Shown here piece by piece: positions 901-17,454 of a DNA stretch of 20,792 nucleotides (position 1 is the stretch's first letter; each line of letters starts with the position of its first letter). The stretch lies in UHGV virus genome UHGV-1788846; one strand, written 5' to 3'. The position numbers and the translations under genes are program-made. The notes under the pieces are model-generated. The model saw only the letters and a program-made list of their open reading frames with translations, ran no database searches and was not told where the DNA came from. Origin of the DNA: a virus.

Positions 901-929
901 TTTACTTTACCACAAGGATGTGGTATAAT
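901..929 (+). promoter_or_regulatory. T4 early-type sigma70 promoter: -35 TTTACT (901-906), 17-nt spacer, extended -10 TGgTATAAT (921-929)
   Basis: Canonical hexamers with 17-nt spacing immediately after the gene 39 stop and ahead of the rIIA.1/rIIA/rIIB genes. Shares the spacer core ACCACAAGGAnnGTGG with the promoter at 5405-5433. Confidence 0.7.
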
Positions 930-954
930 TAATTGGGCAAATGAGGATATTGAA

Positions 955-1158
955 ATGAAATCATATAAAGTAAATTTAGAACTTTTTGATAAAGCAGTTC
1001 ATCGAGAATATAGAATCATTCAACGCTTTTTCGATATGGGAGAAGCCGAAGAGTTTAAAAACCGCTTTAAGGATATTAGAGATAAAATTCAATCCGACAC
1101 TGCAACTAAAGATGAATTACTAGAAGTTGCTGAAGTTATTAAACGCAATATGAATTAA
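955..1158 (+). CDS. rIIA.1: Small early protein, 67 aa, in the rIIA.1 position
   Basis: ATG preceded by GAGGA; lies between the topoisomerase gene and rIIA as in T-even phages. Name is positional only. Confidence 0.5.
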
Positions 1159-1168
1159 TGAGGAAATT

Positions 1169-3346
1169 ATGATTATCACCACTGAAAAAGAAACAATTCT
1201 TGGTAATGGTGCTAAATCAAAAGCATTTAGCATCGCAGCAAATCCTAAAGTATTTAAAATTCTGTCATCTGATTTGTATACAAACAAGATTCGCGCAGTA
1301 GTCCGTGAATTAATTACCAACATGATTGATGCCCATGCTCTTAATGGAAATCCTGAAAAATTTATCATTCAAGTTCCAGGACGATTAGATCCGCGATTTG
1401 TTTGCCGAGATTTTGGTCCAGGTATGAGCGATTTTGATATTCAAGGTGATGATAATTCTCCTGGGCTGTATAATTCATACTTTAGTTCATCTAAGGCTGA
1501 ATCTAACGATTTCATTGGTGGATTTGGTTTAGGTTCTAAATCTCCGTTTAGTTATACTGATACGTTTAGTATTACTTCGTACCATAAAGGTGAAATTCGT
1601 GGTTATGTAGCTTACATGGATGGTGATGGTCCACAGATTAAACCTACATTCGTAAAAGAAATGGGTCCAGACGATAAAACTGGTATTGAAATCGTAGTTC
1701 CAGTTGAAGAAAAAGACTTTAGAAACTTTGCTTATGAAGTTTCTTATATCATGCGACCATTCAAAGATTTGGCTATCATTAATGGTCTTGACCGTGAAAT
1801 TGATTATTTTCCGGATTTTGATGACTATTACGGTGTAAATCCAGAAAGATACTGGCCAGATCGTGGTGGATTGTATGCTATCTATGGCGGTATTGTTTAT
1901 CCTATTGATGGTGTTATTAGAGACCGTAACTGGTTAAGCATCCGCAATGAAGTGAATTATATTAAGTTTCCAATGGGTTCACTTGATATTGCTCCATCGC
2001 GTGAGGCTCTTTCACTGGACGATCGTACTCGTAAAAATATTATTGAGCGCGTTAAAGAGCTTAGTGAGCGGGCATTCAATGAAGATGTAAAACGATTTAA
2101 AGAATCTACATCTCCTCGTCATACATACCGTGAATTGATGAAGATGGGATATTCTGCTCGAGATTATATGATTAGCAATTCAGTCAAATTCACGACTAAA
2201 AATCTGTCATATAAAAAGATGCAGAGCATGTTTGAACCTGACAGCAAGTTGTGCAATGCAGGAGTTGTGTATGAAGTAAATCTTGACCCTCGACTGAAAC
2301 GCATTAAGCAAAGCCATGAAACTTCAGCCGTTGCATCAAGCTATCGTCTGTTTGGTATTAATACGACAAAAATTAATATTGTTATTGATAATACTAAAAA
2401 TCGTGTTAATATTGTCCGTGGATTAGCACGTGCATTAGATGATAGTGAATTTAATAACACCTTAAATATTCATCATAATGAGCGTCTTCTGTTTATTAAT
2501 CCGGAAGTAGAATCGCAGATTGATTTGCTTCCTGATATTATGGCAATGTTTGAAAGTGATGAAGTTAACATTCATTATTTGTCAGAAATTGAAGCTTTAG
2601 TTAAAAGTTATATTCCAAAGGCAGTAAAAAGTACAGCTCCTCGTCCTAAAGCTGCTACTGCATTTAAGTTTGAAATTAAAGACGGGCGCTGGGAAAAAGA
2701 GGAATTGTTTACACTTACGTCAGAAGCAGATGAAATTACTGGTTATGTAGCATACATGCATCGTTCTGATATTTTCTCTATGGATGGTACTACATCGCTT
2801 TGTCATCCATCTACGAATATTTTGATTCGTATGGCTAATCTTATTGGCATTAATGAATTTTATGTTATTCGTCCGCTTTTACAGAAAAAGGTAAAAGAAC
2901 TTGGTCAGTGCCAATGTATTTTTGAAACTCTGCGTGATTTATATGTAGATGCTTTTGATGCTGTAGATTATGATAAGTATGTAGGTTATTCAAGTTCAGC
3001 TAAACGATATATTGATAAAATTATTAAGTATCCTGAACTAGATTTTATGATGAAGTACTTCAGTGTAGATGAAGTTTCTGAAGAATATACTCGCCTTGGT
3101 AATATGGTTAGTTCATTGCAGGGTATATATTTCAACGGTGGAAAAGATACCATCGGTCATGACATCTGGACAGTAACTAATCTTTTTGATGTATTATCAA
3201 ATAATGCTTCAAAAAACAGTGATAAAATGGTTGCTGAGTTTACCAAGAAATTCCGTATTGTTTCCGACTTCATCGGTTATCGCAGCTCTTTAAGTGATGA
3301 TGAAGTTTCTCAAATCGCTAAAACTATGAAGGCCCTTGCGGCCTAA
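1169..3346 (+). CDS. rIIA: rIIA protein, 725 aa, membrane-associated with GHKL-type ATPase fold
   Basis: Length matches T4 rIIA. GHKL motifs are readable: N-box [10 protein letters not shown]1 DFGPGM, G2 [19 protein letters not shown] precedes the ATG; N-terminus [14 protein letters not shown] matches my recollection of rIIA. Confidence 0.92.
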
Positions 3347-3357
3347 TAAGGAAAATT

Positions 3358-4296
3358 ATGTACAATATTAAATGCCTGACCAAAAACGAACAAGCTGAAA
3401 TTGTCAAACTGTATTCAAGTGGTAATTATACCCAGCAGGAATTGGCTGATTGGCAAGGTGTATCGGTGGACACAATCCGTCGTGTTTTGAAAAATGCTGA
3501 AGAAGCTGAGCGTTCCAAAGTTACCATTAGCGGTGACATTACAGTTGAAGTTAAGAGTGATGTAGCCATTGCTCCAGTTGCTAAATCTGACATTATTTGG
3601 AATGCATCTAAAAAATTCATTTCAATTACTGTTGACGGTGTAACTTATAACGCAACTCCTAATACTCATTCAAACTTCCAAGAAATTCTTAATCTGCTTG
3701 TTGCAGATAAATTGGAAGAAGCGGCGCAAAAAATTAATGTTCGTCGCGCTGTTGAAAAATATATTTCCGGTGATGTTCGAATTGAAGGTGGAAGCTTGTT
3801 CTATCAAAATATTGAATTGCGATCTGGTTTAGTTGATCGTATTCTCGATTCGATGGAAAAAGGCGAAAACTTTGAATTTTATTTTCCGTTCTTGGAAAAT
3901 CTGCTGGAAAACCCGAGCCAAAAGGCGGTATCTCGACTCTTTGATTTCTTGGTAGCAAACGATATTGAAATTACAGAAGATGGCTACTTCTATGCTTGGA
4001 AAGTAGTTCGCAGCAATTACTTTGACTGTCATTCAAATACTTTTGATAACAGTCCTGGTAAAGTAGTTAAAATGCCACGTACTCGTGTGAATGACGATGA
4101 TACACAAACTTGTTCTCGTGGTCTGCATGTGTGTTCTAAATCTTATATTCGTCACTTTGGCAGTTCAACCAGCCGAGTTGTAAAAGTTAAAGTACATCCT
4201 CGCGATGTAGTATCAATTCCGATTGATTACAACGATGCTAAAATGCGTACCTGTCAATACGAAGTAGTTGAAGACGTTACTGAACAATTCAAATAA
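3358..4296 (+). CDS. rIIB: rIIB protein, 312 aa
   Basis: Directly downstream of rIIA with RBS AAGGAAAA; 312 aa as in T4 rIIB. Confidence 0.9.
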   Translation: MYNIKCLTKNEQAEIVKLYSSGNYTQQELADWQGVSVDTIRRVLKNAEEAERSKVTISGDITVEVKSDVAIAPVAKSDIIWNASKKFISITVDGVTYNATPNTHSNFQEILNLLVADKLEEAAQKINVRRAVEKYISGDVRIEGGSLFYQNIELRSGLVDRILDSMEKGENFEFYFPFLENLLENPSQKAVSRLFDFLVANDIEITEDGYFYAWKVVRSNYFDCHSNTFDNSPGKVVKMPRTRVNDDDTQTCSRGLHVCSKSYIRHFGSSTSRVVKVKVHPRDVVSIPIDYNDAKMRTCQYEVVEDVTEQFK

Positions 4297-4310
4297 GGGC
4301 TTCGGCCCTT
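4295..4310 (+). other. C(UUCG)G tetraloop hairpin aaGGGC-TTCG-GCCCtt immediately after the rIIB stop
   Basis: Perfect inverted repeat with TTCG loop; no U-run follows, so more likely an mRNA stability or processing element than a terminator. Confidence 0.6.
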
Positions 4311-4324
4311 AACTAAGGAAAATT

Positions 4325-4519
4325 ATGTTAGGTTATCAAGCACGAGTAAAAGAAGAATACGATCAATTAATGCTCAAAATTAATGCACTGAGCAAATTTT
4401 TAGAAAGCACAAAGTTTCTAACGATTAATGAAGTTGAGCAAGAATTGCTGCTTTCACAATTCATCTCAATGAAATCTTACGCAGATTGTTTAGAAAAAAG
4501 AATTGCACAATTCAAATAA
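4325..4519 (+). CDS. Hypothetical early protein, 64 aa
   Basis: ATG with RBS AAGGAAAA, flanked by hairpins; predicted helical and hydrophilic. Confidence 0.55.
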   Translation: MLGYQARVKEEYDQLMLKINALSKFLESTKFLTINEVEQELLLSQFISMKSYADCLEKRIAQFK

Positions 4520-4522
4520 AAT

Positions 4523-4546
4523 AAGGGGCTTCGGCCCTTTTGTTTT
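4523..4546 (+). terminator. Intrinsic terminator-like element: aaGGGGC-TTCG-GCCCtt followed by TTTTGTTTT
   Basis: GC stem with UUCG loop followed by a U-rich run, directly after the 64-aa ORF stop. Confidence 0.6.
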
Positions 4547-4557
4547 AAGGAAAAATT

Positions 4558-4887
4558 ATGATTTATTGTATGAATATCGGTGATTCCGACATAAAAGAGA
4601 TTAAACTGCACGGAAATCATCACGCTAATATTGTGTACTGCAATAAATTTGAGTTTGGTCACGAAAAACTTGGGTTTCTTTACTGCAATGATATTATAGT
4701 CATGGATAAAAAGGAACTCGATGAACTTGACCGTGAGTCTTTAGATGAAAATGACCGAATTTATTACGGCACTCTTAAAGTATATAACGCTTATCTCAGC
4801 GGTAAAAAGGAAAGTCTAAATGCAGAAAACGAATCCGGGTTTACAGAGACTATTTCAGATTCCGACATTTACCCTATCGAACAGTGA
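4558..4887 (+). CDS. Hypothetical early protein, 109 aa, acidic C-terminus
   Basis: ATG with RBS AAGGAAAAA; its 3' end overlaps the next ORF by 68 nt. Confidence 0.5.
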   Translation: MIYCMNIGDSDIKEIKLHGNHHANIVYCNKFEFGHEKLGFLYCNDIIVMDKKELDELDRESLDENDRIYYGTLKVYNAYLSGKKESLNAENESGFTETISDSDIYPIEQ

Positions 4888-5377
4888 CTTGACTAGTGAA
4901 ATGAAGGTCAAAATTGCTGATACAGCAAGATACTCTTTAAAACAAAATCCAAATCAGGATAAAGCAGAAGTTATCGAAAGATGCCGTATAGCGGTGTACG
5001 CAGAGTTTTTTGTAGCAGATTGGCTAAGCGGGTATGTTAACAAAGGCCAAGAGGATGTTAATGACCCGTATACATACGCATGGGATGTATTGGCGCATCC
5101 AAGATACTGCGGGCTTCGTGTAGAAGTTAAGACACATCAAACTGACTCACGTTGGATTTCTGTAACAACAGGATGCAGCGGAGAGTATCCATATGGTTCT
5201 GGAATAAATCTAGGGCCCATTCTGAATCATCAGGTCGCTGACTGTATAATTATATTCAACACTAAAGAAATTCATCCAGGTGTCATCCAGTACACTCCGA
5301 AGTTCATCGGTGATAGAGAAGACCTTCGTAAGGTTGTAAGAAAAAGCAACTACAGCGGATGGTATCTTTCCATTTAA
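4820..5377 (+). CDS. denB: Putative endonuclease IV (denB-like), 185 aa; assignment by position and length only
   Basis: 185 aa with RBS AAGGAAAG 7 nt before the ATG; sits between rIIB and ndd where denB lies in T4. I do not recall the DenB sequence. An alternative internal start at 4901 would remove the overlap. Confidence 0.45.
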   Translation: MQKTNPGLQRLFQIPTFTLSNSDLTSEMKVKIADTARYSLKQNPNQDKAEVIERCRIAVYAEFFVADWLSGYVNKGQEDVNDPYTYAWDVLAHPRYCGLRVEVKTHQTDSRWISVTTGCSGEYPYGSGINLGPILNHQVADCIIIFNTKEIHPGVIQYTPKFIGDREDLRKVVRKSNYSGWYLSI

Positions 5378-5404
5378 AAATTTTCACAAAACAGTTTACA
5401 TACC

Positions 5405-5433
5405 ACAAGGACTGTGGTACTATATAACTATCA
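5405..5433 (+). promoter_or_regulatory. T4 early-type promoter: -35 TTTACA (5405-5410), 17-nt spacer, -10 TACTAT (5428-5433) with upstream TGg
   Basis: Promoter and leader are near-identical to the motA promoter at 9259-9287 (TTTTCACAAAACnGTTTACA…CTGTGGTAyTATA…AACTATCAACT). Confidence 0.7.
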
Positions 5434-5457
5434 ACTGATACGGATTTGGAGAATAAA

Positions 5458-5664
5458 ATGTTTACTACAGCTGAATTAAAACGAGCAAAAGCTAAGAAAG
5501 GGCAAGGAAAATATAAAGCTGAATTAGTTAAAGAACTTCAGTTTGCTGAGGCTGAATTGAATTCAATGATTATTCAAAATGCTCCAGAAACTGAAATTGC
5601 TCTTAAACGTATTGCGAATAAGTGTCTTCGTGATGCAATCGTCGATCTTTTAGCGGATTATTGA
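5458..5664 (+). CDS. Hypothetical early protein, 68 aa from ATG (the track's 72-aa version starts at a TTG)
   Basis: ATG at 5458 preceded by GGAG and by the early promoter. Confidence 0.5.
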   Translation: MFTTAELKRAKAKKGQGKYKAELVKELQFAEAELNSMIIQNAPETEIALKRIANKCLRDAIVDLLADY

Positions 5665-5669
5665 GTAAA

Positions 5670-5933
5670 ATGAAATTTAAATTTTATTACGCTAAACATA
5701 AAATAACTGATGAGTTTGTGTCAGTTGAATATTCTAGCGATGATGAAGGTATGATTTATACTCGCTTAGGGTTATCGCACTGGGAGTCTGATACGCCTTA
5801 TTTTTCAACTCCTGAAGAAATTACACGTTTAGTTAATGGTCATATGAATGACCACTGGAATGTAATTCTTTCAGATAGTCTTAAAGCGGCTATTAATAGT
5901 AATGAAATGAAAATCGCTGAGATTGAACTATGA
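5670..5933 (+). CDS. Hypothetical early protein, 87 aa from ATG (the track's 90-aa version starts at TTG 5661)
   Basis: In-frame ATG at 5670 just after the upstream stop; continuous ORF. Confidence 0.5.
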   Translation: MKFKFYYAKHKITDEFVSVEYSSDDEGMIYTRLGLSHWESDTPYFSTPEEITRLVNGHMNDHWNVILSDSLKAAINSNEMKIAEIEL

Positions 5934-6016
5934 GTTCATTATGGTGGTGTTTTGTTTGGTTAATTAGTATTCCATTGATTTGTTTAGTATTTACTTTTGT
6001 GATGAGGTTATTATGA
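5930..6016 (+). CDS. Putative micro-ORF, 28 aa, hydrophobic (MSSLWWCFVWLISIPLICLVFTFVMRLL)
   Basis: ATG overlaps the upstream stop (ATGA); single predicted transmembrane helix; below the ORF-track size cutoff. Confidence 0.3.
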   Translation: MSSLWWCFVWLISIPLICLVFTFVMRLL

Positions 6017-6111
6017 AAATTTTGAATTCTGTACTTATTGCTTGTGCGTGGTGGGTTGCACAGGTTTCAGCGGTAGTAGTTGGTATTCACATTTATTACG
6101 AATATTTTTAA
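6013..6111 (+). CDS. Putative micro-ORF, 32 aa, hydrophobic (MKILNSVLIACAWWVAQVSAVVVGIHIYYEYF)
   Basis: ATG overlaps the upstream stop (ATGA); hydrophobic core. Confidence 0.3.
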   Translation: MKILNSVLIACAWWVAQVSAVVVGIHIYYEYF

Positions 6112-6119
6112 AAAAGTTG

Positions 6120-6148
6120 TTTACAAGACTGTTCTTCCGTGGTACTAT
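6120..6148 (+). promoter_or_regulatory. T4 early-type promoter: -35 TTTACA (6120-6125), 17-nt spacer, -10 TACTAT (6143-6148) with TGg
   Basis: Same architecture as the other three early promoters; followed by the leader CTATCAACTACGGAGGAACAGAAA and an ATG at 6177. Confidence 0.65.
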
Positions 6149-6176
6149 TACCCTATCAACTACGGAGGAACAGAAA

Positions 6177-6290
6177 ATGAAAAAGATTGTTAAAGCTATA
6201 TGGAATGTAGTTATAATACTAGTAGTTTTGAGTATATTCCCAATCGTTTTAATGATTGATGTATTAAACGCTTACTTTGGATTTATGTGA
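6177..6290 (+). CDS. Small membrane peptide, 37 aa (MKKIVKAIWNVVIILVVLSIFPIVLMIDVLNAYFGFM)
   Basis: ATG with RBS GGAGGAA downstream of the promoter. The track's 82-aa ORF (6042-6290) starts at a TTG and runs across the promoter, so the short form is preferred. Confidence 0.5.
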   Translation: MKKIVKAIWNVVIILVVLSIFPIVLMIDVLNAYFGFM

Positions 6291-6297
6291 GGAAAAT

Positions 6298-6495
6298 ATG
6301 AAGCGTAAACGCAGTGCTTTTACATTTATTGAATGGTTTTTCGATAATATTTTTCCAGCTTTATTCATTTTCATGCTGATTTTCGCCTTGGGTTCAGTTG
6401 TAGTTGGAATCTATTTGATGGCAGTTGTCGGAATGGACATTCATCAAAATGGCTTAAAATCTGTAGTTGAAACAATTTGGAATGGTGTAAAATAA
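6298..6495 (+). CDS. Small membrane protein, 65 aa from ATG (the track's 72-aa version starts at TTG 6277)
   Basis: ATG preceded by GAGGAAAA; hydrophobic segment FPALFIFMLIFALGSVVVGIYLMAVVG. Confidence 0.5.
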   Translation: MKRKRSAFTFIEWFFDNIFPALFIFMLIFALGSVVVGIYLMAVVGMDIHQNGLKSVVETIWNGVK

Positions 6496-6602
6496 TGAAT
6501 TTACTAAGCATTTGGTTTTATATTCTTATGTTTTACATTGGTGCAAATTTTCCGTATTGGATGGGATGGTCAACAACTGCATTTGGATTTTATACTCCTT
6601 GA
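6495..6602 (+). CDS. Putative micro-ORF, 35 aa, hydrophobic and aromatic-rich (MNLLSIWFYILMFYIGANFPYWMGWSTTAFGFYTP)
   Basis: ATG overlaps the upstream stop (TAATG); below the ORF-track size cutoff. Confidence 0.3.
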   Translation: MNLLSIWFYILMFYIGANFPYWMGWSTTAFGFYTP

Positions 6603-6610
6603 GGTGAATT

Positions 6611-6826
6611 ATGAAAATCTTTAAAGATGTAAAAGTTGGTGAAATTTTCTGTTTAGATAATGGTGATCAGTTAATTCGTATTTCACCTCTTAAGAGCACT
6701 AGCGAGAAAATGACAGTTAATGCTACTTTAGCAAACAACAGTAATGAACGTTTCTGTATTGAAAATGATACTGAAACTTATACCGTAGAAGAGTTCTGGG
6801 AATTGAGCGTCGACTGCGACGATTAA
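6611..6826 (+). CDS. Hypothetical early protein, 71 aa, acidic
   Basis: ATG with RBS GAGGTGA. Confidence 0.5.
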   Translation: MKIFKDVKVGEIFCLDNGDQLIRISPLKSTSEKMTVNATLANNSNERFCIENDTETYTVEEFWELSVDCDD

Positions 6827-6887
6827 TTTATCGGGGCCGTGTGTATTCATGCGGCCTTGGAGTAGAAAATAATTAGAGGAAATTAAA

Positions 6888-7343
6888 ATGAAATACATGA
6901 CTGTTACTGATCTGAATAATGCAGGCGCAACTGTTATTGGTACAATCAAGGGCGGTGAATGGGTTTTTGGAACTCCGCATAAAGACATTTTGTCTAACCC
7001 TGGATTTTACTTTTTAGTGAGCAAATTTGGTGGTCCATTTGATAGTCCGTGTGTATCTGCACGATTTTATGTAGGTAATCAGCGTTCTAAGCAAGGGTTC
7101 AGTGCAGTTCTAAGTCATATTCGTCAACGCCGGTCTCAACTTGCACGTACTATTGCAAATAACAATGTTCCATACACAGTGTTTTATTTGCCTGCTTCTA
7201 AGATGAAACCTCTGACGACGGGATTTGGAAAAGGTCAGTTAGCTTTGGCGTTTACTCGTAATCATCATTCTGAGTATCAAACGCTTGAAGAAATGAACCG
7301 TATGTTGGCTGATAACTTTAAATTTGTTTTGCAGGCATATTAA
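6888..7343 (+). CDS. ndd: Nucleoid disruption protein Ndd, 151 aa
   Basis: 151 aa with RBS AGAGGAAA; lies immediately upstream of stp and ac as in T4; sequence matches my recollection of Ndd. Confidence 0.75.
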
Positions 7344-7423
7344 TGAGTAATTTCCACAACGAACACGTGATGCAGTTCTATCGTAATAATCTTAAAACTA
7401 AAGGCGTCTTCGGACGCCAGTGA
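7343..7423 (+). CDS. stp: Stp peptide, 26 aa ([26 protein letters not shown])
   Basis: ATG overlaps the ndd stop (TAATG); translation matches the 26-residue T4 Stp as I recall it; not in the ORF track because of size. Confidence 0.75.
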
Positions 7424-7430
7424 GGAAAAT

Positions 7431-7589
7431 ATGAATATCGCAAAATTATTAGGAGTTATTTCATTTATTTGTTGGATAGTAGCATGTGTTTTAACTATCT
7501 GTATCGATGCTAGCAGTGTGTTTTCACAAGCTTTAGCCCAGGGTATGTGTGCATATTTAACATTTGTGTTGTTATCTACTAATGATTAA
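7431..7589 (+). CDS. ac: Small inner-membrane protein in the ac (acriflavine sensitivity) position, 52 aa
   Basis: ATG preceded by GAGGAAAA; one hydrophobic helix (LLGVISFICWIVACVLTICI); located between stp and gene 52. Confidence 0.55.
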   Translation: MNIAKLLGVISFICWIVACVLTICIDASSVFSQALAQGMCAYLTFVLLSTND

Positions 7590-7722
7590 GAAAATCTTGG
7601 GCTATTCATTAGCCCTTGCTACTTTATTGGTAGCACTATATTATGGAGTAATGTTCGGATTAATTCAAGTCGTGCTTTTCATTTCTGATGTTATTATGGC
7701 ACTACATTCACTAGTATGGTAA
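7582..7722 (+). CDS. Putative hydrophobic micro-ORF, 46 aa (MIKKILGYSLALATLLVALYYGVMFGLIQVVLFISDVIMALHSLVW)
   Basis: ATG overlaps the 3' end of the ac-like ORF in another frame and ends 4 nt before gene 52. Confidence 0.35.
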   Translation: MIKKILGYSLALATLLVALYYGVMFGLIQVVLFISDVIMALHSLVW

Positions 7723-7726
7723 ATTT

Positions 7727-9055
7727 ATGCAACTGAATAATCGCGATTTAAAAAGTATCATTGATAATGAAGCACTGGCTTATGCTATGTACACGGTTGA
7801 AAATCGTGCTATCCCAAATATGATTGATGGATTTAAGCCAGTTCAACGATTTGTTATTGCTCGAGCTCTTGATTTGGCACGAGGAAATAAAGATAAGTTT
7901 CACAAACTTGCTTCTATTGCAGGCGGTGTAGCGGACCTTGGATATCATCATGGTGAAAACTCTGCGCAAGATGCGGGGGCTTTGATGGCTAACACTTGGA
8001 ATAATAACTTTCCTCTGTTAGATGGTCAAGGAAACTTTGGTTCTCGTACCGTCCAAAAAGCAGCAGCAAGTCGTTATATTTTTGCTCGTGTAAGTAAAAA
8101 TTTCTATAACGTATATAAAGATACTGAATATGCTCCGGTACATCAAGATAAAGAACACATTCCGCCTGCTTTCTATTTGCCTATTATTCCTACTGTTCTT
8201 CTTAATGGCGTTTCCGGTATTGCAACTGGTTATGCAACTTACATTCTTCCTCATAGTGTTTCTTCTGTTAAGAAAGCTGTACTGCAAGCTCTTCAAGGAA
8301 AGAAAGTAACTAAACCGAAGGTAGAATTCCCAGAATTTCGTGGTGAAGTTGTTGAAATTGATGGGCAGTATGAAATTCGTGGAACATATAAGTTTACTTC
8401 ACGAACTCAAATGAATATCACTGAGATTCCGTATAAGTATGATCGTGAAACTTATGTGAGTAAAATCTTAGACCCGCTTGAAGATAAAGGCTTCATTACG
8501 TGGGATGATGCTTGCGGTGAGCACGGTTTTGGCTTCAAAGTTAAATTCCGTAAAGAATACTCTTTGAGTGATAACGAAGAAGAACGCCACGCAAAAATTA
8601 TGAAAGACTTCGGGTTGATTGAGCGTCGTTCCCAGAATATTACTGTTATTAATGAGAAAGGAAAGCTACAAGTTTACGATAACGTAGTTGATTTAATCAA
8701 AGACTTCGTTGAAGTTCGTAAAACTTATGTCCAAAAACGAATTGATAACAAAATCAAAGAAACTGAATCAGCATTTCGTTTAGCTTTTGCCAAGGCACAT
8801 TTCATTAAGAAAGTAATTTCAGGTGAAATTGTTGTACAAGGTAAAACTCGTAAAGAACTGACCGAAGAACTTTCTAAAATTGATATGTATTCTTCTTATG
8901 TTGATAAACTAGTCGGAATGAATATTTTTCATATGACTTCCGATGAAGCGAAGAAACTTGCTGAAGAAGCTAAAGCTAAAAAAGAAGAAAACGAATATTG
9001 GAAAACTACTGATGTAGTTACAGAATACACCAAAGATTTAGAGGAAATCAAATGA
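7727..9055 (+). CDS. 52: DNA topoisomerase II medium subunit (GyrA-like), 442 aa
   Basis: 442 aa as T4 gp52; N-terminal DNA breakage-reunion region (…IDGFKPVQRFVI…) readable; position upstream of motA. Confidence 0.9.
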   Translation: MQLNNRDLKSIIDNEALAYAMYTVENRAIPNMIDGFKPVQRFVIARALDLARGNKDKFHKLASIAGGVADLGYHHGENSAQDAGALMANTWNNNFPLLDGQGNFGSRTVQKAAASRYIFARVSKNFYNVYKDTEYAPVHQDKEHIPPAFYLPIIPTVLLNGVSGIATGYATYILPHSVSSVKKAVLQALQGKKVTKPKVEFPEFRGEVVEIDGQYEIRGTYKFTSRTQMNITEIPYKYDRETYVSKILDPLEDKGFITWDDACGEHGFGFKVKFRKEYSLSDNEEERHAKIMKDFGLIERRSQNITVINEKGKLQVYDNVVDLIKDFVEVRKTYVQKRIDNKIKETESAFRLAFAKAHFIKKVISGEIVVQGKTRKELTEELSKIDMYSSYVDKLVGMNIFHMTSDEAKKLAEEAKAKKEENEYWKTTDVVTEYTKDLEEIK

Positions 9056-9201
9056 GTCCATTCATAGGTATTACAAGCGCTGCATTAGTATCTGGTAGCA
9101 TTTTACTGGCGGGTTTAGGCGTTGTTCCAGCCGTAGCAGGAGGTCTTCTTGCGTTCGGAATTCAACGTGTTATCATGACAGTTATCACAGTCATGCAGTA
9201 A
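9052..9201 (+). CDS. Putative hydrophobic micro-ORF, 49 aa (MSPFIGITSAALVSGSILLAGLGVVPAVAGGLLAFGIQRVIMTVITVMQ)
   Basis: ATG overlaps the gene 52 stop (ATGA); glycine-zipper-like hydrophobic sequence; followed directly by a strong terminator. Confidence 0.4.
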   Translation: MSPFIGITSAALVSGSILLAGLGVVPAVAGGLLAFGIQRVIMTVITVMQ

Positions 9202-9206
9202 TTTTA

Positions 9207-9232
9207 GGGAGAGCCGAGGCTCTCCCTTTTTT
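9207..9232 (+). terminator. Rho-independent terminator: GGGAGAGC-cgag-GCTCTCCC followed by TTTTTT
   Basis: Perfect 8-bp GC-rich stem with 4-nt loop and a six-T run, closing the unit that ends with gene 52. Confidence 0.85.
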
Positions 9233-9258
9233 ATTTCAAAAATTTTTTCACAAAACGG

Positions 9259-9287
9259 TTTACAACCAAAGCATACTGTGGTATTAT
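9259..9287 (+). promoter_or_regulatory. T4 early-type promoter for motA: -35 TTTACA (9259-9264), 17-nt spacer, -10 TATTAT (9282-9287) with TGg
   Basis: Canonical spacing; near-identical in promoter and leader to the one at 5405-5433. Confidence 0.75.
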
Positions 9288-9328
9288 ACAACTATCAACT
9301 ACTGATACAGAATTACGGAGATTAGAAA

Positions 9329-9964
9329 ATGTCTAAAGTAACTTACATCATCAAAGCTTCTAACGATGTTCTGAATGAAAAAACTGCTGCGATTTTAATT
9401 ACCATTGCTAAGAAAGATTTCATTACAGCTGCAGAAGTTCGTGAGGTGCATCCAGATTTAGGTAATGCAGTAGTTAATAGTAATATTGGGGTATTGATTA
9501 AAAAAGGCCTGGTGGAGAAATCTGGTGATGGATTAATCATTACTGGTGAAGCTCAGGATATTATTTCAAATGCAGCAACTTTATACGCACAAGAAAATGC
9601 TCCGGAACTGCTGAAAAAACGAGCAACTCGTAAAGCTCGTGAGATTACTTCTGATATGGAAGAAGATAAAGACTTCATGTTAAAACTTTTAGATGAAAAT
9701 GGATTTGTTCTTAAAAAGGTTGAAACTTATCGTAGTAACTATCTCGCTATTTTAGAAAAACGCACTCACGGAATTCGTAATTTTGAAATTAACAACAATG
9801 GAAATATGCGAATTTTTGGATACAAAATGATGGAACATCATATTCAGAAATTTACTGACATCGGAATGTCATGTAAAATCGCTAAAAACGGTAATGTGTA
9901 TCTTGACATTAAACGCTCGGAAGAAAACATTGAAGCAGTAATCACTGTAGCATCTGAACTGTGA
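9329..9964 (+). CDS. motA: MotA, activator of middle transcription, 211 aa
   Basis: 211 aa with RBS GGAG; sequence matches my recollection of T4 MotA. Confidence 0.9.
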   Translation: MSKVTYIIKASNDVLNEKTAAILITIAKKDFITAAEVREVHPDLGNAVVNSNIGVLIKKGLVEKSGDGLIITGEAQDIISNAATLYAQENAPELLKKRATRKAREITSDMEEDKDFMLKLLDENGFVLKKVETYRSNYLAILEKRTHGIRNFEINNNGNMRIFGYKMMEHHIQKFTDIGMSCKIAKNGNVYLDIKRSEENIEAVITVASEL

Positions 9965-9974
9965 GGAATAAATA

Positions 9975-10304
9975 ATGAACAAGTTAGAAATTGTCAATGA
10001 ACTTCGTCGTTGCGCAGAACCTACTCAAGAGGGTTGGGATATTTGGTACCATGGAGCTTATCTTGGAACTATCGTAAAGATTAAGACTGGTAAATACATG
10101 ATTATTCGTGAAAGTAAAGATGCTCCAGTAGGTATTCGCAATAATTTTATGGCAGCAATAAGTTCATTTACAGATGCAGCTTACGAAATTTACCTTGATG
10201 ATTATAAAGAATTCCAGGAATCTCAACCGGTTATTCGTTCAATTGGTGTTAACAAAGCTCAGCAGAAAACTTTGTGGCAACGTATTAAAGGATGGTTTAA
10301 ATGA
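9975..10304 (+). CDS. Hypothetical early protein, 109 aa
   Basis: ATG with RBS GAGGAATAA immediately after motA. Confidence 0.55.
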
Positions 10305-10762
10305 ACCCATTTATCAATCGTTTAAAAATGCTGAATGTTCCTTTATCTCGTGAGACTCCAGAAAGTCTTGTTCAAAAGTTTAAAGCGCACGGTTATAAAT
10401 GCACAGAAGAAGATATTCTGAAAGAAGTTCCTGAAATTTGTTGGCAGACTGCGTACTGGGATGAAAACCAAAAGTATCAACGACGAATTGTCTGCGCAGC
10501 CAACCGTTTTAAATTAAAAGATGGACGAACTCTTATTATTCCAGGTGCTCGTCATTATTCTAAAGATATGGCAGAAGTTTTAGATGTAGTTAAACCTCAA
10601 TTAGTTACTCAACAAGTTTGTGATGATGACCAAGGGTTTATTGACCAATATAGTAATTATTGGACACGTGAAGAAGCAATGATTATTGCAACTTACGCTG
10701 GACAAGTACGTATTGAACGTGGTGGTAGTGAAAAAGAACTTTACTCTGAGGACCTTTACTAA
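10301..10762 (+). CDS. Hypothetical early protein, 153 aa
   Basis: ATG overlaps the upstream stop (ATGA); no motif I can assign. Confidence 0.55.
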
Positions 10763-11058
10763 TGAATATTAAAAAGTTTCAAATTGATGGAATTATGAAT
10801 CAAATCCAGGCACTGGAATATGCTAATAAAATGATGTCAACTAATTGGGGAATTTATACCAATGAGCCGGGATTTCAGTTCTGTAATATGGAATTCACCA
10901 AAAAGCTCGTAGGAAAAGATTATGTGTGTCCATTTAGTTCTCCAGTAAATGGAATGTTAAAACCTGCTTTACGCGATCTTTATATTGCGATGAACGAAGA
11001 AATGATAAAAGAGTTAAAACGTCAACTGAAGGTGATTCAATTTGGCCAGGGAAATTAA
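10762..11058 (+). CDS. Hypothetical early protein, 98 aa
   Basis: ATG overlaps the upstream stop (TAATG). Confidence 0.55.
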   Translation: MNIKKFQIDGIMNQIQALEYANKMMSTNWGIYTNEPGFQFCNMEFTKKLVGKDYVCPFSSPVNGMLKPALRDLYIAMNEEMIKELKRQLKVIQFGQGN

Positions 11059-12056: not shown

Positions 12057-12713
12057 TTATTTAGCCCTTCCTAATATTCTGGCCGCCTGAGAACATATTG
12101 ATTCAAGGCGGTCATTACTTATATGATCATTTCTATACCAGTACATGGTTATTGTTCCAGCATAGATATTATCCAAATTGAAATATGGACAACTGTACAT
12201 GTAATTTATTTCGGGAGTAGGCTTTTTGGTTGGTAAAAAAGCAAATTTTGAGTTGGAATAATAATGACGTCCATTTAAATGAACTGTATATTCATCCATA
12301 GTTTTATCAACAGGATATCCTCCAAGTGATTTTTCACTTATTGTTGAAGGTAATTTTCCTTCGTATGCTATAATATCAACAAAATAGTTTAAGTTTTTAG
12401 GGCGGAAAGAATATACCGCACTAAAGTCTGCCTCAGATGATATATGAACTATCTGGAGTTGTTCCAGGGCGACAGATTCAAAGCGTGCATTTCTTTCCTT
12501 TTCAACAATTTCACGGTATGTTTCATACTTTGATTGCTTATAGTACTCAAAGAAACTATCTCCCCTATACCAAACAATCGCCATTATAAACAAAAGAATT
12601 ACGACAGCTACCCGGGAAGCAAGAACCTTCCCGGTAGCGTTATCTTTGAACAAGCGATCTAGAACACCAAATAGAATATCAGAGGGCGAAAATGATATTC
12701 TAGGTGCTGCCAT
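12057..12713 (-). CDS. t: Holin T, 218 aa
   Basis: 218 aa with an N-terminal transmembrane segment (VAVVILLFIMAIVWY) and a large periplasmic domain; strong RBS AAAAGGAGGG; position between asiA and gene 38. Confidence 0.9.
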   Translation of the reverse strand: MAAPRISFSPSDILFGVLDRLFKDNATGKVLASRVAVVILLFIMAIVWYRGDSFFEYYKQSKYETYREIVEKERNARFESVALEQLQIVHISSEADFSAVYSFRPKNLNYFVDIIAYEGKLPSTISEKSLGGYPVDKTMDEYTVHLNGRHYYSNSKFAFLPTKKPTPEINYMYSCPYFNLDNIYAGTITMYWYRNDHISNDRLESICSQAARILGRAK

Positions 12714-12732
12714 AGACCCTCCTTTTAAGGAT

Positions 12733-12740
12733 ATTTATTC
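12733..12740 (-). promoter_or_regulatory. Possible late promoter (AATAAATA on the - strand, 7 of 8 match to TATAAATA) ahead of t
   Basis: + strand TATTTATT lies about 20 nt upstream of the t start codon. Confidence 0.3.
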
Positions 12741-12744
12741 AAAA

Positions 12745-13551
12745 TTATACTCTTGCACCATATATTGTACCAACTTTAGTCCAAGTTGGAGCATTACCAG
12801 TAACAGCTTTACCCGCAGCACCAGCACCACTGGCATTATAGTTTGATGTACGAACGGCAGCACCACCAGCCGCACCAACGTTACCACCAGCACCACTCAT
12901 GTTATTACCATCAACGGTTACTTTACCACCTGCGGCGGTTAACGATGCATTACCACCATTACCACGACCACCTCGACCACCAGTACCGAACGGACGGCCA
13001 CCACCGCCGCCAGCGACGCCAGCTAATGTGAAGTTATAGTCTATGGACCAACCACCACCGCCGCCACCGCCGCCAGCAATTGCACCATTATTCGTAATAC
13101 GTAAGCGTGTACCAATACCATTATTAATCGCTGTACCACCAGCAGTTGCTCGAACCAAAGCATCTCCAGAACCTCCACTAGATCCAGATCCATTACCTCC
13201 TCGGCCATAAACAGTAACGCCAGAGTTAATAATCAATGTCACGTATTCATTAGTTAATGAACTAGGAAAATCTAAGCATGGAATAGTTGAAGAACTAGAA
13301 ACAATATCTCCTGTTATTGTTACAACAGCAGGAGCTGTTCCAATTGATTTAAGCCAATTAATTAAAGTATCTTTATTATATGAATGATTTGAGCCAATTG
13401 AATAAGCTTTTTCAACTGACTTTCCTGCCATTGAGCTCATCCAGCCGGGAACTGAAACACGAACAGCTTTCATCGCAGCATCCATCCAACGTTGTCCAGT
13501 TTCATTCACGGCAGATTCACCAATCCAGCCAGGAACACCTACAATTGCCAT
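12745..13551 (-). CDS. 38: T2-type gp38 long-tail-fibre tip adhesin, 268 aa, with glycine-rich motifs and variable segments
   Basis: N-terminal conserved domain followed by Gly-rich blocks (GRGGNGSGSSGGSG, GGGGGGGG, GGGGGRPFGTGGRGGRGNGG, SGAGGNVGAAGG) separated by short variable stretches. Located directly downstream of gene 37. The T4-type gp38 is a 183-aa chaperone, so this is the T2/K3/Ox2 form. Confidence 0.85.
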   Translation of the reverse strand: MAIVGVPGWIGESAVNETGQRWMDAAMKAVRVSVPGWMSSMAGKSVEKAYSIGSNHSYNKDTLINWLKSIGTAPAVVTITGDIVSSSSTIPCLDFPSSLTNEYVTLIINSGVTVYGRGGNGSGSSGGSGDALVRATAGGTAINNGIGTRLRITNNGAIAGGGGGGGGWSIDYNFTLAGVAGGGGGRPFGTGGRGGRGNGGNASLTAAGGKVTVDGNNMSGAGGNVGAAGGAAVRTSNYNASGAGAAGKAVTGNAPTWTKVGTIYGARV

Positions 13552-13562
13552 TAAAAATCCTT

Positions 13563-13580
13563 AGAGGGCCGAAGCCCTCT
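13563..13580 (-). other. Intercistronic hairpin between 37 and 38: AGAGGGC-UUCG-GCCCUCU on the transcribed strand
   Basis: Perfect 7-bp stem; the loop reads UUCG only on the - strand; followed by AAGGA and the gene 38 ATG. Confidence 0.6.
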
Positions 13581-13581
13581 T

Positions 13582-16500
13582 TTACATAAGTTTAGATTCA
13601 AGTTCTTTTACACGAGCAGAAAGTGTTTTCACAGCTTCAACCAGAAGAGCAATCTGGGCTTGAGAAGAAACAGTGAGTATTTTATTACCCTTGCTATCTT
13701 CTGTTTCATGGACAGCTTCTGGTAAAACGTCTTGCAACGTTTGAGCTATAATACCCGCTTCGGTTTGAACAGGTTCACCGCCTATATATTCAGCTTTGTC
13801 ATAGATTAAACCATCAAGTTGCTCAACCCTTTCGAGCGCATTTTTAATAGGTTTAAAATTAGATTTCAAGCGAACATCAGAACGAATATAAACGTTAGGA
13901 GCATTGACATTTTTCTCGGAATAAACTTCGCTTGAGGTGAATCTAACAACTTTAACGTTGTTCGCCCACGCTTCTAAAAGCCCATCGCCTACTTGTCTAA
14001 AACCAGTATCGCTATCACCTATTGCAATTGAGTTACCACCCCATCCATTTGTTGTATTAACACCAAAGGCACTTGTTTGTGGTAGCAGTACTTTACCAGG
14101 GCAATCTAAAGTACCGTCCATTGTAAAGCGCCATCTTGCTTGCTGGCCATTAGCATTATCTCCGCGAATACGAATAATACCATCGCGCCAACCAGCTGTA
14201 GTGCCGGAACCGACCCATCCGAACTCAAAGGTTTGACGATAACCCGCTGAACCATAGTTACTCCATGCACCGACAATAGGATAATAACTACCTGAATTAG
14301 ATAAATCACCATGATCTGCCATAAAGGTGATTTTAGATTTCATGGCATCTGAGGTATCTCCCCATCCAGATGGCGCGCGGGCGTATGAAACTAGTCTTGA
14401 GCTAATATTACCTAAATTAGTATTACCGCCAGTAACGTTTAATCCACCACCAGTAATATTCAACCCATGGTTCATACCAACGCGGCCATCAGTCATATTA
14501 ATAGAGAAAGGTCTTAAGCCATTCCAATCACCATTAGCTGCATCGGGTTTTTCTTCCGTATTTTTATCTGTAGCTAAAATATAAAAACTTCCGCCATCAT
14601 TTCTAATTAAAGCTGCGTTAGAACCGATATTATTACCGTTAGATTTAATACGCATGCCTTTTTGATTATCAGTAACGTATTCACCGCGAGTAACAATGTT
14701 AGATTCTCCAGCTGCGAAAGTTCCGCCAATATTATTTAACAGACGAACTGTTTTACCTACAACATGTCCCTCAGGCAATGCATCAACAACTGGCTGAATG
14801 CCTCCGTTAAGACCGACTACGGTTACCGAAGAGTTTTCACTACAGGAATATTCAACCACTAATGCATTTGTATAACCGGCACAGAACACGTATACATCAT
14901 AAGTATCGCCAGATGTATTCATAGTAGCTATCTGATTAAAACTCAGGTCTGACCTATTCCACAGTACAGCGTTTATGCCTTTAGGATTATTATTACCCGT
15001 GCGAAGAACTATTTCTGCAACAGAAGCTTGGCTATAGCTTTTAAAATTAAAACCAGCGCCGCCGGAAATCTTAAAAGTCACTGTACCAGTACCCTGAGGA
15101 ATTGTTACCGTAGCAAATTTATACCATCCGTCAACAGAACTACCAGCCCAACCGCCCACGCTGGTTTTACGATTTAACGTTGTATTTAAGTTAGCAAAAT
15201 TACCAGTACCACCTGTGATGTTACCATCTGTACCAATTCGAATATCATTAATTTTAAGAGGCTTAGTAATATCGACAGTATCAGAGTTTAATGCAATACC
15301 GTGAGAGTAGGTGTAATTATGCATACGAACGACGTTTCCGCCATCGCCAATACCTAAATACCATTTTGTAACATCAGCCTTACGTCCTTGAATAAAGTTA
15401 GATGCAGCTTGAGATGAAGCATTTACCACAATAGCGTCAGAATCCATATTAACTCGAAGTCTAACATCGGTTTGAACGAATTTTGATACGTTATCAATAG
15501 TAAGCAAATTTTTTCCGGCTTGTGTATGATTGCCCATCATAACACTACCATTTGCGAGATTGATGGTAAATGGGCGTAAATTACTTATACCGCCCGATTC
15601 TCCAGCATTTTGTAAAGTTGGAATAATATAAAAGTTAGTTTCCGAACGGCGGAAAATAGCACCGTATTCAGCATTCCAAATTCTTAATGCATCTGCTGTT
15701 CCACCAAATTTAGCTTGTCCATTTACAGACAATCCATTATTTGCAACTAAACTTGACTCAGTAACAATAGAACCTGATGATGTAATACCCCCACCGGTTA
15801 ATAATGCTCCAGCAATTCTAAATTGAATTACTCCAGTTGTTGAACCTGATGCAGGAGCTACACGCTGCGCATAAAAATAATAACCTTGTCCGTCAGCTAC
15901 TTCAAAAACCGTTTCACGATTACGATCGCCAGATGCGTTAAATGAATTACCCCACGCTTTAATAGATACATAACTTTTATTCTGACCTGCGCGAGTACCA
16001 CCAGCCCACAGTATAGTTTTAGTGCCATCTGCTGATGTAGGAGCGTCAAGTTGAATACCGTCAGGTCTAGCACCAGTAAGAACTAATCCGTTATCAAATT
16101 TAATTCTTTGTATTGAAGATACTGTTCCATTAGCATAAAACTGTACGTTATTAGAGCCAGTTACCAATTTCAAAATACCAGGGTTAATTTCCATACCTTC
16201 CTGTGTATTAATGTTGGTTTGGCCTTTACCGCGGAAATAATGGGAAAATTTACCGCCAGAATTATATCCAATGTGGGTTTGACCATCGCCTGCGTTATTC
16301 ACATCTGCCTGAGTTTGAACAGACAAGAGAGCAGCGTTCGTTCCAGGCATTGTCCAGGTTCCGCCTTGATCTTCTGAACGTCCAAATAATGCTTTACGAG
16401 TACTACGGAAACTATCAGGAGTAATAGAAGCAACAGAATTCCAATTACCTACTAAATCATAAACACCTTGCTTAATATATTTTAAACCGGTTGCAGCATC

Positions 16501-17454
16501 ACCCAAAGCAATATATCTTTCTCCCATTGGAGTAGGAGAACCGTAGTTGTTAGTATTTTCATCAGTGGTAATTGTGCCAATAGCAAGTGAACGACGTAAT
16601 ACCATTGCGCCATCATTACGAAGACCCATTAATTTAGTAGTAAGTGTATTTCCGGTCCACCAAGAAATTTCATCATTCTTACCAGTTTGAGCTGAAGCGA
16701 TTTCATGGTAAATAGTTCCGCCTGATTTAGCTCTAACTTTACGAAGATAGTTTATACCATTTTCTTCACCTGTTCCAGGATAAACATATTGAACTAATGA
16801 CTGTGAATCATATTGTCCAAATGCTTTTGTATCTAAAATAATATTTTTAGTATTAATCTGAGGCGAAGTAATATTTCCGAGAGCTGCAATATTTCCAGAT
16901 GTAGTTATACTACCTCCTGATACTGCTAAACCTCCACCGTCAACAACAAATCCGCCGTCACGTCGAAACGTCCAATATTTCGAATCGCCAGATTCATTGA
17001 TATAATGAATCTTCAACGAACCTTCAGAAACTAAAGTACCTAATGAAAAAGTTCCATCTTTAAAGCGCTGTTTAATTATAGGATTATATTCAGATGTGGA
17101 AGTAGCTGAGCTTAAATCTACAAAAATTGGAGCTTTCGCAGTATGTTGACCGGACCAAGCCCCACTTCCAGTAGTACGATAATTAAACTCAATATATCCA
17201 CCGCTTGCTACAATTTGCGGACCAATTAAATTAAATTTTCCAGTCTGTGTATAATCGCCAGTTTGAGTGATATTTCCACTAATATTACCGCCAGCGGTAA
17301 TGCTTAAATCAATAATATTTCCCGAGTCATCTTTAGTAAAAAGAGTACGGTCTTTTAAGTTTATAGCCAATTCACCTTCGGCTAATACTGAAGCAGCAGG
17401 ACGTTGACCTGCAGTTTTGCTTCTTTTAAATTGTATTTGTTTTAAAGTAGCCAT
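13582..17454 (-). CDS. 37: Long tail fibre distal subunit gp37, 1290 aa, with a C-terminal intramolecular-chaperone-type domain
   Basis: N-terminus MATLKQIQFKRSKTAGQRPAASVLAEGELAINLKDRTLF is the conserved gp37 start; the long repetitive Gly/Thr/Ser/Asn-rich body is typical of fibre shafts; C-terminal …YIRSDVRLKSNF… motif. Confidence 0.9.
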   Translation of the reverse strand: MATLKQIQFKRSKTAGQRPAASVLAEGELAINLKDRTLFTKDDSGNIIDLSITAGGNISGNITQTGDYTQTGKFNLIGPQIVASGGYIEFNYRTTGSGAWSGQHTAKAPIFVDLSSATSTSEYNPIIKQRFKDGTFSLGTLVSEGSLKIHYINESGDSKYWTFRRDGGFVVDGGGLAVSGGSITTSGNIAALGNITSPQINTKNIILDTKAFGQYDSQSLVQYVYPGTGEENGINYLRKVRAKSGGTIYHEIASAQTGKNDEISWWTGNTLTTKLMGLRNDGAMVLRRSLAIGTITTDENTNNYGSPTPMGERYIALGDAATGLKYIKQGVYDLVGNWNSVASITPDSFRSTRKALFGRSEDQGGTWTMPGTNAALLSVQTQADVNNAGDGQTHIGYNSGGKFSHYFRGKGQTNINTQEGMEINPGILKLVTGSNNVQFYANGTVSSIQRIKFDNGLVLTGARPDGIQLDAPTSADGTKTILWAGGTRAGQNKSYVSIKAWGNSFNASGDRNRETVFEVADGQGYYFYAQRVAPASGSTTGVIQFRIAGALLTGGGITSSGSIVTESSLVANNGLSVNGQAKFGGTADALRIWNAEYGAIFRRSETNFYIIPTLQNAGESGGISNLRPFTINLANGSVMMGNHTQAGKNLLTIDNVSKFVQTDVRLRVNMDSDAIVVNASSQAASNFIQGRKADVTKWYLGIGDGGNVVRMHNYTYSHGIALNSDTVDITKPLKINDIRIGTDGNITGGTGNFANLNTTLNRKTSVGGWAGSSVDGWYKFATVTIPQGTGTVTFKISGGAGFNFKSYSQASVAEIVLRTGNNNPKGINAVLWNRSDLSFNQIATMNTSGDTYDVYVFCAGYTNALVVEYSCSENSSVTVVGLNGGIQPVVDALPEGHVVGKTVRLLNNIGGTFAAGESNIVTRGEYVTDNQKGMRIKSNGNNIGSNAALIRNDGGSFYILATDKNTEEKPDAANGDWNGLRPFSINMTDGRVGMNHGLNITGGGLNVTGGNTNLGNISSRLVSYARAPSGWGDTSDAMKSKITFMADHGDLSNSGSYYPIVGAWSNYGSAGYRQTFEFGWVGSGTTAGWRDGIIRIRGDNANGQQARWRFTMDGTLDCPGKVLLPQTSAFGVNTTNGWGGNSIAIGDSDTGFRQVGDGLLEAWANNVKVVRFTSSEVYSEKNVNAPNVYIRSDVRLKSNFKPIKNALERVEQLDGLIYDKAEYIGGEPVQTEAGIIAQTLQDVLPEAVHETEDSKGNKILTVSSQAQIALLVEAVKTLSARVKELESKLM

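Follow-up and report, generated by a model that had tools for sequence, protein, structure and literature searches.

Most T4-type phages carry a gp38 adhesin, with T4 itself being the exception (Trojet 2011, PMC3157838). Its architecture of five glycine-rich motifs (GRMs) and four hypervariable segments (HVSs) has been described by Trojet et al. 2011 (PMC3157838) and Lutz et al. 2025 (PMC12032242). The prototype is gp38 of T2 (FadL/OmpF). In T4, the same slot between genes 37 and t is taken by an unrelated sequence, a 183-aa assembly chaperone, and the receptor is recognised by the gp37 tip itself and not by a separate gp38.

We analysed a window, i.e. the whole stretch of 20,792 nucleotides of the virus genome UHGV-1788846, which belongs to a Tequatrovirus and whose gene 38 almost certainly encodes a T2-type gp38 adhesin. 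The closest described proteins are gp38 of Lutter, FJ1, G8 and IsaacDaniel, which are 95-97 % identical over 268 residues, share the same HVS1-4 and lie in the same slot between 37 and t. They differ by a small number of substitutions, most of them in HVS2 and HVS4, and their gp37 is another mosaic. T2 gp38 has the same architecture and locus, with the N-terminal 114 residues 72 % identical, but its HVS2-4 are only 22 % identical to those of the window. The same loop identity (22 %) separates the window from gp38 of the Gelderlandvirus S16 (PDB 6F45; Dunne et al. 2018), which binds Salmonella OmpC; the two match at 43 % in structural alignment (TM 0.79/0.85) and their gp37 tips are homologous. 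The PP01 gp38 domain (9V85; PMC12892980) aligns with window residues 39-268 (TM 0.76/0.91, rmsd 2.3 Å), but PP01 binds O157 OmpC via its own loops, and HVS2-4 of wV7, its presumed stand-in, are 20 % identical to ours.

Gene 38 and the predicted fold of its product

The position given by the sequence-only reading for a 268-aa gene downstream of 37 proved exact. The ORF is intact and runs on the minus strand, which we add here, from ATG at 13551 to TAA at 12745-12747. It starts 30 nt downstream of the gp37 ORF and ends 31 nt upstream of the holin gene t (Table 1). The minus-strand gene order in the window is 34-35-36-37-38-t, and 14 Tevenvirinae reference loci have the same order. The placement of gene 38 between 37 and t is shared with T2, S16, KRT47, Sf22 and the BASEL phages; the Krischvirus phages RB49 and JEP8 are a known exception to this T-even order.

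The T2-type adhesin call of that reading was borne out by profile and structure matches. The protein covers the whole of the Pfam family PF05268 (GP38; profile positions 1-218 of 218, E 2.2e-66, 224.3 bits against a cut-off of 25), its N-terminus matches PF21721 (Gp38_N; E 7.5e-18, 64.7 bits against a cut-off of 25), and phrog_2056, 'tail fiber protein; host specificity', is hit with E 1e-90, values well outside chance expectation. In the PDB, sequence searches recovered only two matches, S16 gp38 (6f45_D, E 3.4e-42) and PP01 gp38 (9v85, E 2.7e-40). Homologues are present in 763 phage records, and the nearest ones carry the annotation 'tail fibre adhesin'. Computation supports the family, the fold, the synteny and the compatibility of the gp37 tip, and no result speaks against the adhesin identity.

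The rival identity, a T4-type gp38 acting as an assembly chaperone that aids gp37 trimerisation and is absent from the virion, is hardly conceivable. It can draw only on the gene slot downstream of 37 and on the legacy annotation 'distal long tail fiber assembly catalyst' of some homologues. Direct BLASTP against T4 gp38 (NP_049864, 183 aa, from NC_000866.4) showed no significant similarity, with a best E of 11 over 7 residues, and the T4 RefSeq note calls T2-type gp38 unrelated. Moreover, the predicted fold matches solved adhesins and the gp37 C-terminus is of the T2/S16 type, not of the T4 type. BLASTP and fold thus exclude the T4-type chaperone, from which the sequence-only reading had already set the protein apart; no significant alignment pairing the two was obtained.

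To define the domain layout, we aligned the window gp38 with 24 other gp38 proteins using MAFFT. The glycine-rich blocks split by variable segments, noticed from the sequence alone, resolved in this 25-sequence alignment into five GRMs and four HVSs (Table 1). Glycine makes up 35 % of residues 115-250 versus 9 % of residues 1-114. The GRMs are 55-100 % conserved across the panel, the HVSs 0-45 % outside the clade of the window gp38, and a larger alignment of 87 gp38 sequences contains invariant glycines. HVS1 carries a 6-aa insertion, ALVRAT, which is missing in SH-1, the KRT47 group and the sequence cluster P0006.

The AlphaFold2 model built on the 87-sequence alignment reached a mean pLDDT of 91.7 and a pTM of 0.86. 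It has three short N-terminal helices (10-18, 23-29 and 38-41), and almost no helix or strand in residues 160-249, where the block-mean pLDDT is 83-98. This pattern is the one expected of a polyglycine-II sandwich, a fold predicted here from secondary structure and pLDDT. Structural modelling had been proposed as a check of the adhesin call, and the model indeed superposes on the polyglycine-II sandwich domains of the solved adhesins of S16 (6f45_D) and PP01 (9v85). These two were also the only hits of Foldseek against the PDB (E 5e-21 to 4e-18, TM 0.74-0.91), all others having E > 1.

Table 1. Features of gene 38, its product and the neighbouring genes; residues are those of gp38 unless gp37 is named
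Feature	Residues	Position	Strand	Basis
Gene 38, very probable T2-type receptor-recognising adhesin		12745..13551, stop codon included	minus	ORF, Pfam, PDB matches, AF2 model
N-terminal attachment and beta-helix part	1-114			
Gp38_N attachment domain, presumably docking on the gp37 trimer tip (from S16 structure and Trojet 2011)	1-42	13426..13551	minus	PF21721
Glycine-rich specificity domain, GRM1-5 and HVS1-4, predicted polyglycine-II sandwich	115-250	12802..13209	minus	alignment, model
GRM1 YGRGGNG	115-121			alignment
HVS1 SGSSGGSGDALVRATA	122-137	13141..13188	minus	alignment
Conserved core	138-159			alignment
GRM2 G8	160-167			alignment
HVS2 WSIDYNFTLAGVA	168-180	13012..13050	minus	alignment
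GRM3 GGGGGRPFGTGG	181-192			alignment
HVS3 RGGRGNGGNASLTAAGGKVTVDGNNMS	193-219	12895..12975	minus	alignment
GRM4 GAGGNVGAAGG	220-230			alignment
HVS4 AAVRTSNYNAS	231-241	12829..12861	minus	alignment
GRM5 GAGAAGKAV	242-250			alignment
Conserved tail	251-268			alignment
Gene 37, distal half-fibre subunit carrying gp38 at its tip, 1290 aa		13582..17454	minus	phrog_1699, Pfam
Region homologous to the S16 gp37 fragment crystallised with gp38	gp37 1138-1288	13591..14043	minus	6f45_A E 3.4e-9
Predicted intramolecular chaperone	gp37 1192-1290	13585..13881	minus	PF13884 E 1.8e-13 at 1192-1249
Gene t, holin, downstream neighbour defining synteny		12057..12713	minus	PF11031 E 2e-117
AATAAATA, 7/8 match to the T4 late-promoter consensus TATAAATA, upstream of holin gene t		12732..12739	minus	read from sequence
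7-bp hairpin with UUCG tetraloop, between gene 37 stop and gene 38 Shine-Dalgarno		13563..13580	minus	AGAGGGC-UUCG-GCCCUCU
Gene 38 Shine-Dalgarno AAGGA		13558-13562	minus	

The partner gp37 and mosaicism of the fibre tip

The product of gene 37 was recognised as 'long tail fiber protein distal subunit' by phrog_1699 (E 0) and contains the Pfam domains Gp34_trimer, gp37_trimer and Peptidase_S74. Its C-terminus is of the T2/S16 type, i.e. a docking tip followed by Peptidase_S74, and not a T4 receptor-binding tip. Self-cleavage is predicted before Ser1192, between IR and SDVRLK (Ser codon 13879-13881), and would remove the last 99 residues. T2 gp37 undergoes comparable C-terminal processing, and T4 gp37 is without such an end.

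By analogy with the family, the C-terminal chaperone domain of gp37 would fold the fibre, cut itself off and expose the tip, which one gp38 monomer would cap through its N-terminal domain bound to the gp37 trimer. The five GRMs would form the structural core, packed as a polyglycine-II sandwich, and the four HVS loops on the distal face would attach to the primary receptor at the outer membrane of the host. Once several long fibres have bound reversibly, the short fibres would be released and the baseplate triggered, leading to infection as in other T-even phages. The presence of gp38 in the virion, the cleavage of gp37 and receptor binding by gp38 are properties that we infer from the family. 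The loop-specificity step is supported by published changes of receptor, from Tsx to OmpA by swapping gp38 from HVS2 onward and from OmpF to OmpW by the single change Q206L in HVS3 (preprint 10.64898/2026.04.02.716166).

Regarding the whole window, the best matches are SH-1, SH-2, ESh26, CrRp10 and T2, all about 94 % identical, and the exact gp38 protein is recorded once, on an ENA metagenome contig (ERZ27229705 k119_97584) whose genes stand in the same order. The picture of a T4-like window with a mosaic fibre tip, drawn by the sequence-only reading, agrees with our comparisons. The flanks are 91-97 % identical to T4 DNA overall (91.7 % in genes 34-36, 97.3 % from t onward), gp37 aligns with T4 gp37 only over residues 1-813 (49 % aa) and one 47-aa stretch beyond, and gp38 is unrelated. 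Since the gp38 adhesin predominates among T4-type phages, such mosaicism relative to T4 is the normal state.

Finer mosaicism became visible in 200-nt sliding windows compared with G8, Lutter and SH-1. Within gene 37, positions 16050-16750 are 94-99 % identical to G8 and 64-81 % to Lutter and SH-1; conversely, positions 14560-15860 are 98-100 % identical to Lutter and SH-1 and 64-87 % to G8. The 5′ half of gene 38 is 95-98 % identical to G8 and Lutter versus 64-87 % to SH-1, and its 3′ third matches each of the three phages at 89-98 %, with one switch of relative within the gene around 13000-13150. Altogether, between 13700 and 17300 and in gene 38 the nearest relative alternates among these phages every 0.3-1.3 kb, with 94-100 % identity inside the blocks and 62-87 % outside.

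Distribution of the loop allele and candidate receptors

Identity of 86-98 % in HVS2-4 is limited to a small clade formed by SH-1, G8, Lutter and the sequence clusters P0001-P0003 and P0006, of which P0005 is also a member. The block is rare, being present in 5 of 86 diverse database representatives, and only eight records (six phages) in the phage collection match at least 80 % of gene 38 DNA. The block travels as a unit, independently of HVS1 and the N-terminus: it is combined with other HVS1 types in SH-1 and P0006 and with an RB49-like N-terminus in P0003 and P0005, and in SH-1 a KRT47-type N-terminus and HVS1 are joined to window-type HVS2-4. Phages with this allele have been obtained on E. 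coli from manure, STEC O104, ETEC O9:H9, Shigella boydii and Hafnia paralvei. The Hafnia paralvei isolate is IsaacDaniel (MW749000.1, 157356-158159), whose gp38 is 95.5 % identical to that of the window; presumably, then, Escherichia/Shigella and Hafnia have the receptor of the allele in common.

For receptor assignment we used a panel of 13 receptor-labelled gp38 proteins, comprising 12 published assignments (Tsx: JK38, Bas37, T6; OmpA: Bas45, RB49, M1; OmpF: Bas38, Bas47; FadL: T2; OmpC: Sf22, KRT47, S16) and wV7 as a presumed PP01-like OmpC binder. The closest adhesins with an assigned receptor are those of Sf22 and KRT47, 70 % identical overall and nearly identical in the N-terminus, core and C-terminus, but differing in the loops (identity 12 % in HVS1, 23 % in HVS2, 34 % in HVS3 and 45 % in HVS4). 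With 34 % over HVS2-4, they and the adhesins of ime09 and CrRp10 are the best match outside the clade of the allele; all others, including the Tsx, OmpA, OmpF and FadL binders, reach 8-27 %. Thus the HVS2-4 loops are shared neither with the OmpC subgroup (Sf22/KRT47, 34 %) nor with the Tsx, OmpA, OmpF and FadL subgroups (JK38/Bas37/T6, Bas45/RB49/M1, Bas38/Bas47 and T2; 8-22 %). Assigning the receptor by loop similarity was dropped, as HVS2-4 are at most 34 % identical to any of the 13 labelled adhesins. The receptor is not assignable from sequence, since 34 % similarity is not predictive and single substitutions can switch receptors. Similarity can also mislead among labelled adhesins, as the type-1 OmpA adhesins resemble Tsx binders more than they resemble the type-2 OmpA adhesins (PMC12032242).

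The sequence-only reading had expected the variable segments to specify which outer-membrane protein is bound. The segments do correspond to experimentally shown determinants, but in this allele they match those of no adhesin with a mapped receptor, and something other than an outer-membrane protein may be the target. The alignment that it suggested was carried out with the segments of T2, T6 and M1, giving low identity in HVS2-4 and no receptor match. TuIa and TuIb, also on its list, reportedly recognise their receptors via gp37, like T4, and would for that reason be poor references for a gp38 alignment. For TulB, dependence on OmpC has been described, with the OmpC-predictive features placed in Gp37 (preprint 10.64898/2026.04.02.716166). 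Lutter, G8 and FJ1 are not mentioned by Lutz 2025, and the available part of the supplements of the 2026 receptor-prediction preprint contains neither these phages nor their accessions nor the loop peptides of the allele.

The only experiment found on a carrier of the allele concerns FJ1, whose gp38 is 96.6 % identical to that of the window. Proteinase K often leaves porin barrels intact and LPS is required by every T-even phage for its short tail fibres, so the FJ1 assay is weak evidence. In that assay adsorption fell by 48 % after periodate and was unaffected by proteinase K; its authors placed the receptor at the LPS level (PMC10035155).

Ranked on sequence, an OmpC-like receptor would come first, followed by another receptor, LPS included, and then by the other known porins. 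Binding to OmpC, as in Sf22 and KRT47, is a tentative first choice and still somewhat doubtful. Both phages require OmpC (Tinney 2022, as cited in PMC12892980), their adhesins together with those of ime09 and CrRp10 are the nearest outside the clade, and the motifs ASLT..AGGK and AVR..NxY are common to the window and the Sf22/KRT47 group; the combination of a KRT47-type front with window-type loops in SH-1 points the same way. On the other hand, the loops differ at 66 % of their positions, one substitution can be enough for a change of receptor (preprint 10.64898/2026.04.02.716166), and there is the indifference of FJ1 to proteinase K, to be read with the reservation made above.

In another reading, which we regard as rather unlikely, the target may be a carbohydrate (LPS core or O-antigen), in line with the loss of FJ1 adsorption after periodate, or a protein outside Tsx, OmpA, OmpF, OmpC, FadL and OmpW. 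Sugar-binding gp38 has precedents in Ox2 host-range mutants (Drexler 1991, as cited in PMC12892980) and in Pet-CM3-4 (PMC10194368), the allele occurs in phages of several E. coli serotypes, Shigella boydii and Hafnia paralvei, and none of the 13 labelled adhesins has its loops. However, the periodate assay is crude and also damages other surface structures, LPS is required by T-even phages anyway, and most characterised gp38 adhesins bind porins (PMC12032242; preprint 10.64898/2026.04.02.716166). Binding to another mapped porin (Tsx, OmpA, OmpF, FadL or OmpW) via divergent loops seems unlikely: gp38 most often targets Tsx, OmpA and OmpF, and two unrelated OmpA-binding loop sets exist (PMC12032242), but the identity in HVS2-4 is low, 8-22 %, to every such reference. 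With low confidence, HVS2-4 could be viewed as defining a class of specificity for a receptor other than the mapped ones, maybe an LPS sugar as hinted by the periodate result of FJ1, and the block as a possible mobile receptor-binding module exchanged between Tequatrovirus phages and an unrelated siphovirus-like phage.

This kind of gp38 is already textbook, near-identical genes are already deposited as tail fibre adhesin, and the gp38 call itself adds no new biology. Its correct identification is nevertheless a useful annotation, since host range in T-even phages is switched mainly through gp38, which also serves as a target in the engineering of phages for therapy. As for the allele, it is rare, spread across E. 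coli, Shigella and Hafnia phages, and lies outside the labelled references that train current receptor predictors; mapping its receptor would fill a gap in gp38-based receptor prediction.

The loops in a siphovirus-type tail module and minor elements of the region

The P0003 protein is 98 % identical to the window gp38 over residues 115-250, with the same HVS1-4 and a different N-terminus; its gene is 85-98 % identical to gene 38 from about gene position 300 on and 55-68 % before. It was found on two contigs, which may derive from the same reads: JAASOS010000034.1 (GCA_016113265.1, a 176.7 kb contig of an E. coli assembly, module at 676-10801) and Logan SRR11307973_94 (53.8 kb). There, gp38 lies within a tail module of siphovirus type. 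The order of the module is an S74-domain 1206-aa fibre, major tail protein, gp38, assembly chaperone, 808-aa tape measure, distal tail protein and GpJ-like tip. Resemblance of the fibre gene to Krischvirus gene 37 (about 77 % DNA) is limited to its distal two-thirds. These sequences suggest that the gp38 receptor-binding module may move between phage families.

The best phage match of the tape measure from this module is DCP80 (37 % aa). DCP80, the nearest relative of this siphovirus-like backbone, was dropped as a gp38 carrier, as no ORF of gp38 size is annotated beside its matching tail genes. GenBank places this 141 kb genome (PQ671644.1) in Straboviridae; Tevenvirinae; Gaprivervirus, a classification that looks doubtful given the siphovirus-type tape-measure match, the tail layout of long-tailed phages and the mostly hypothetical genes.

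Several minor elements were noticed in the window. The hairpin between genes 37 and 38 is 99-100 % conserved in G8, Lutter and SH-1 and is annotated as a putative terminator in G8. We dropped it as a notable RNA structure, its fold z-score being only -1.9 and its single terminator-like match at the level of shuffled sequence. It looks like an ordinary T4-type intercistronic hairpin, resembling the classic C(UUCG)G hairpin reportedly found between T4 cistrons. The sequence AATAAATA is a putative T4-type late promoter of gene t, and the Lutter annotation has an 8-nt promoter at the same place. On the plus strand, a 61-nt element is present in three copies (5376-5436, 6101-6161 and 9240-9300; 64-79 % identical) containing a AAAAATTTT tract, GTTTACA and TGGTAcTAT. 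The copies lie upstream of plus-strand early genes, one of them just before motA at 9329, and look like T4-type early promoters, which are ordinary in this region.
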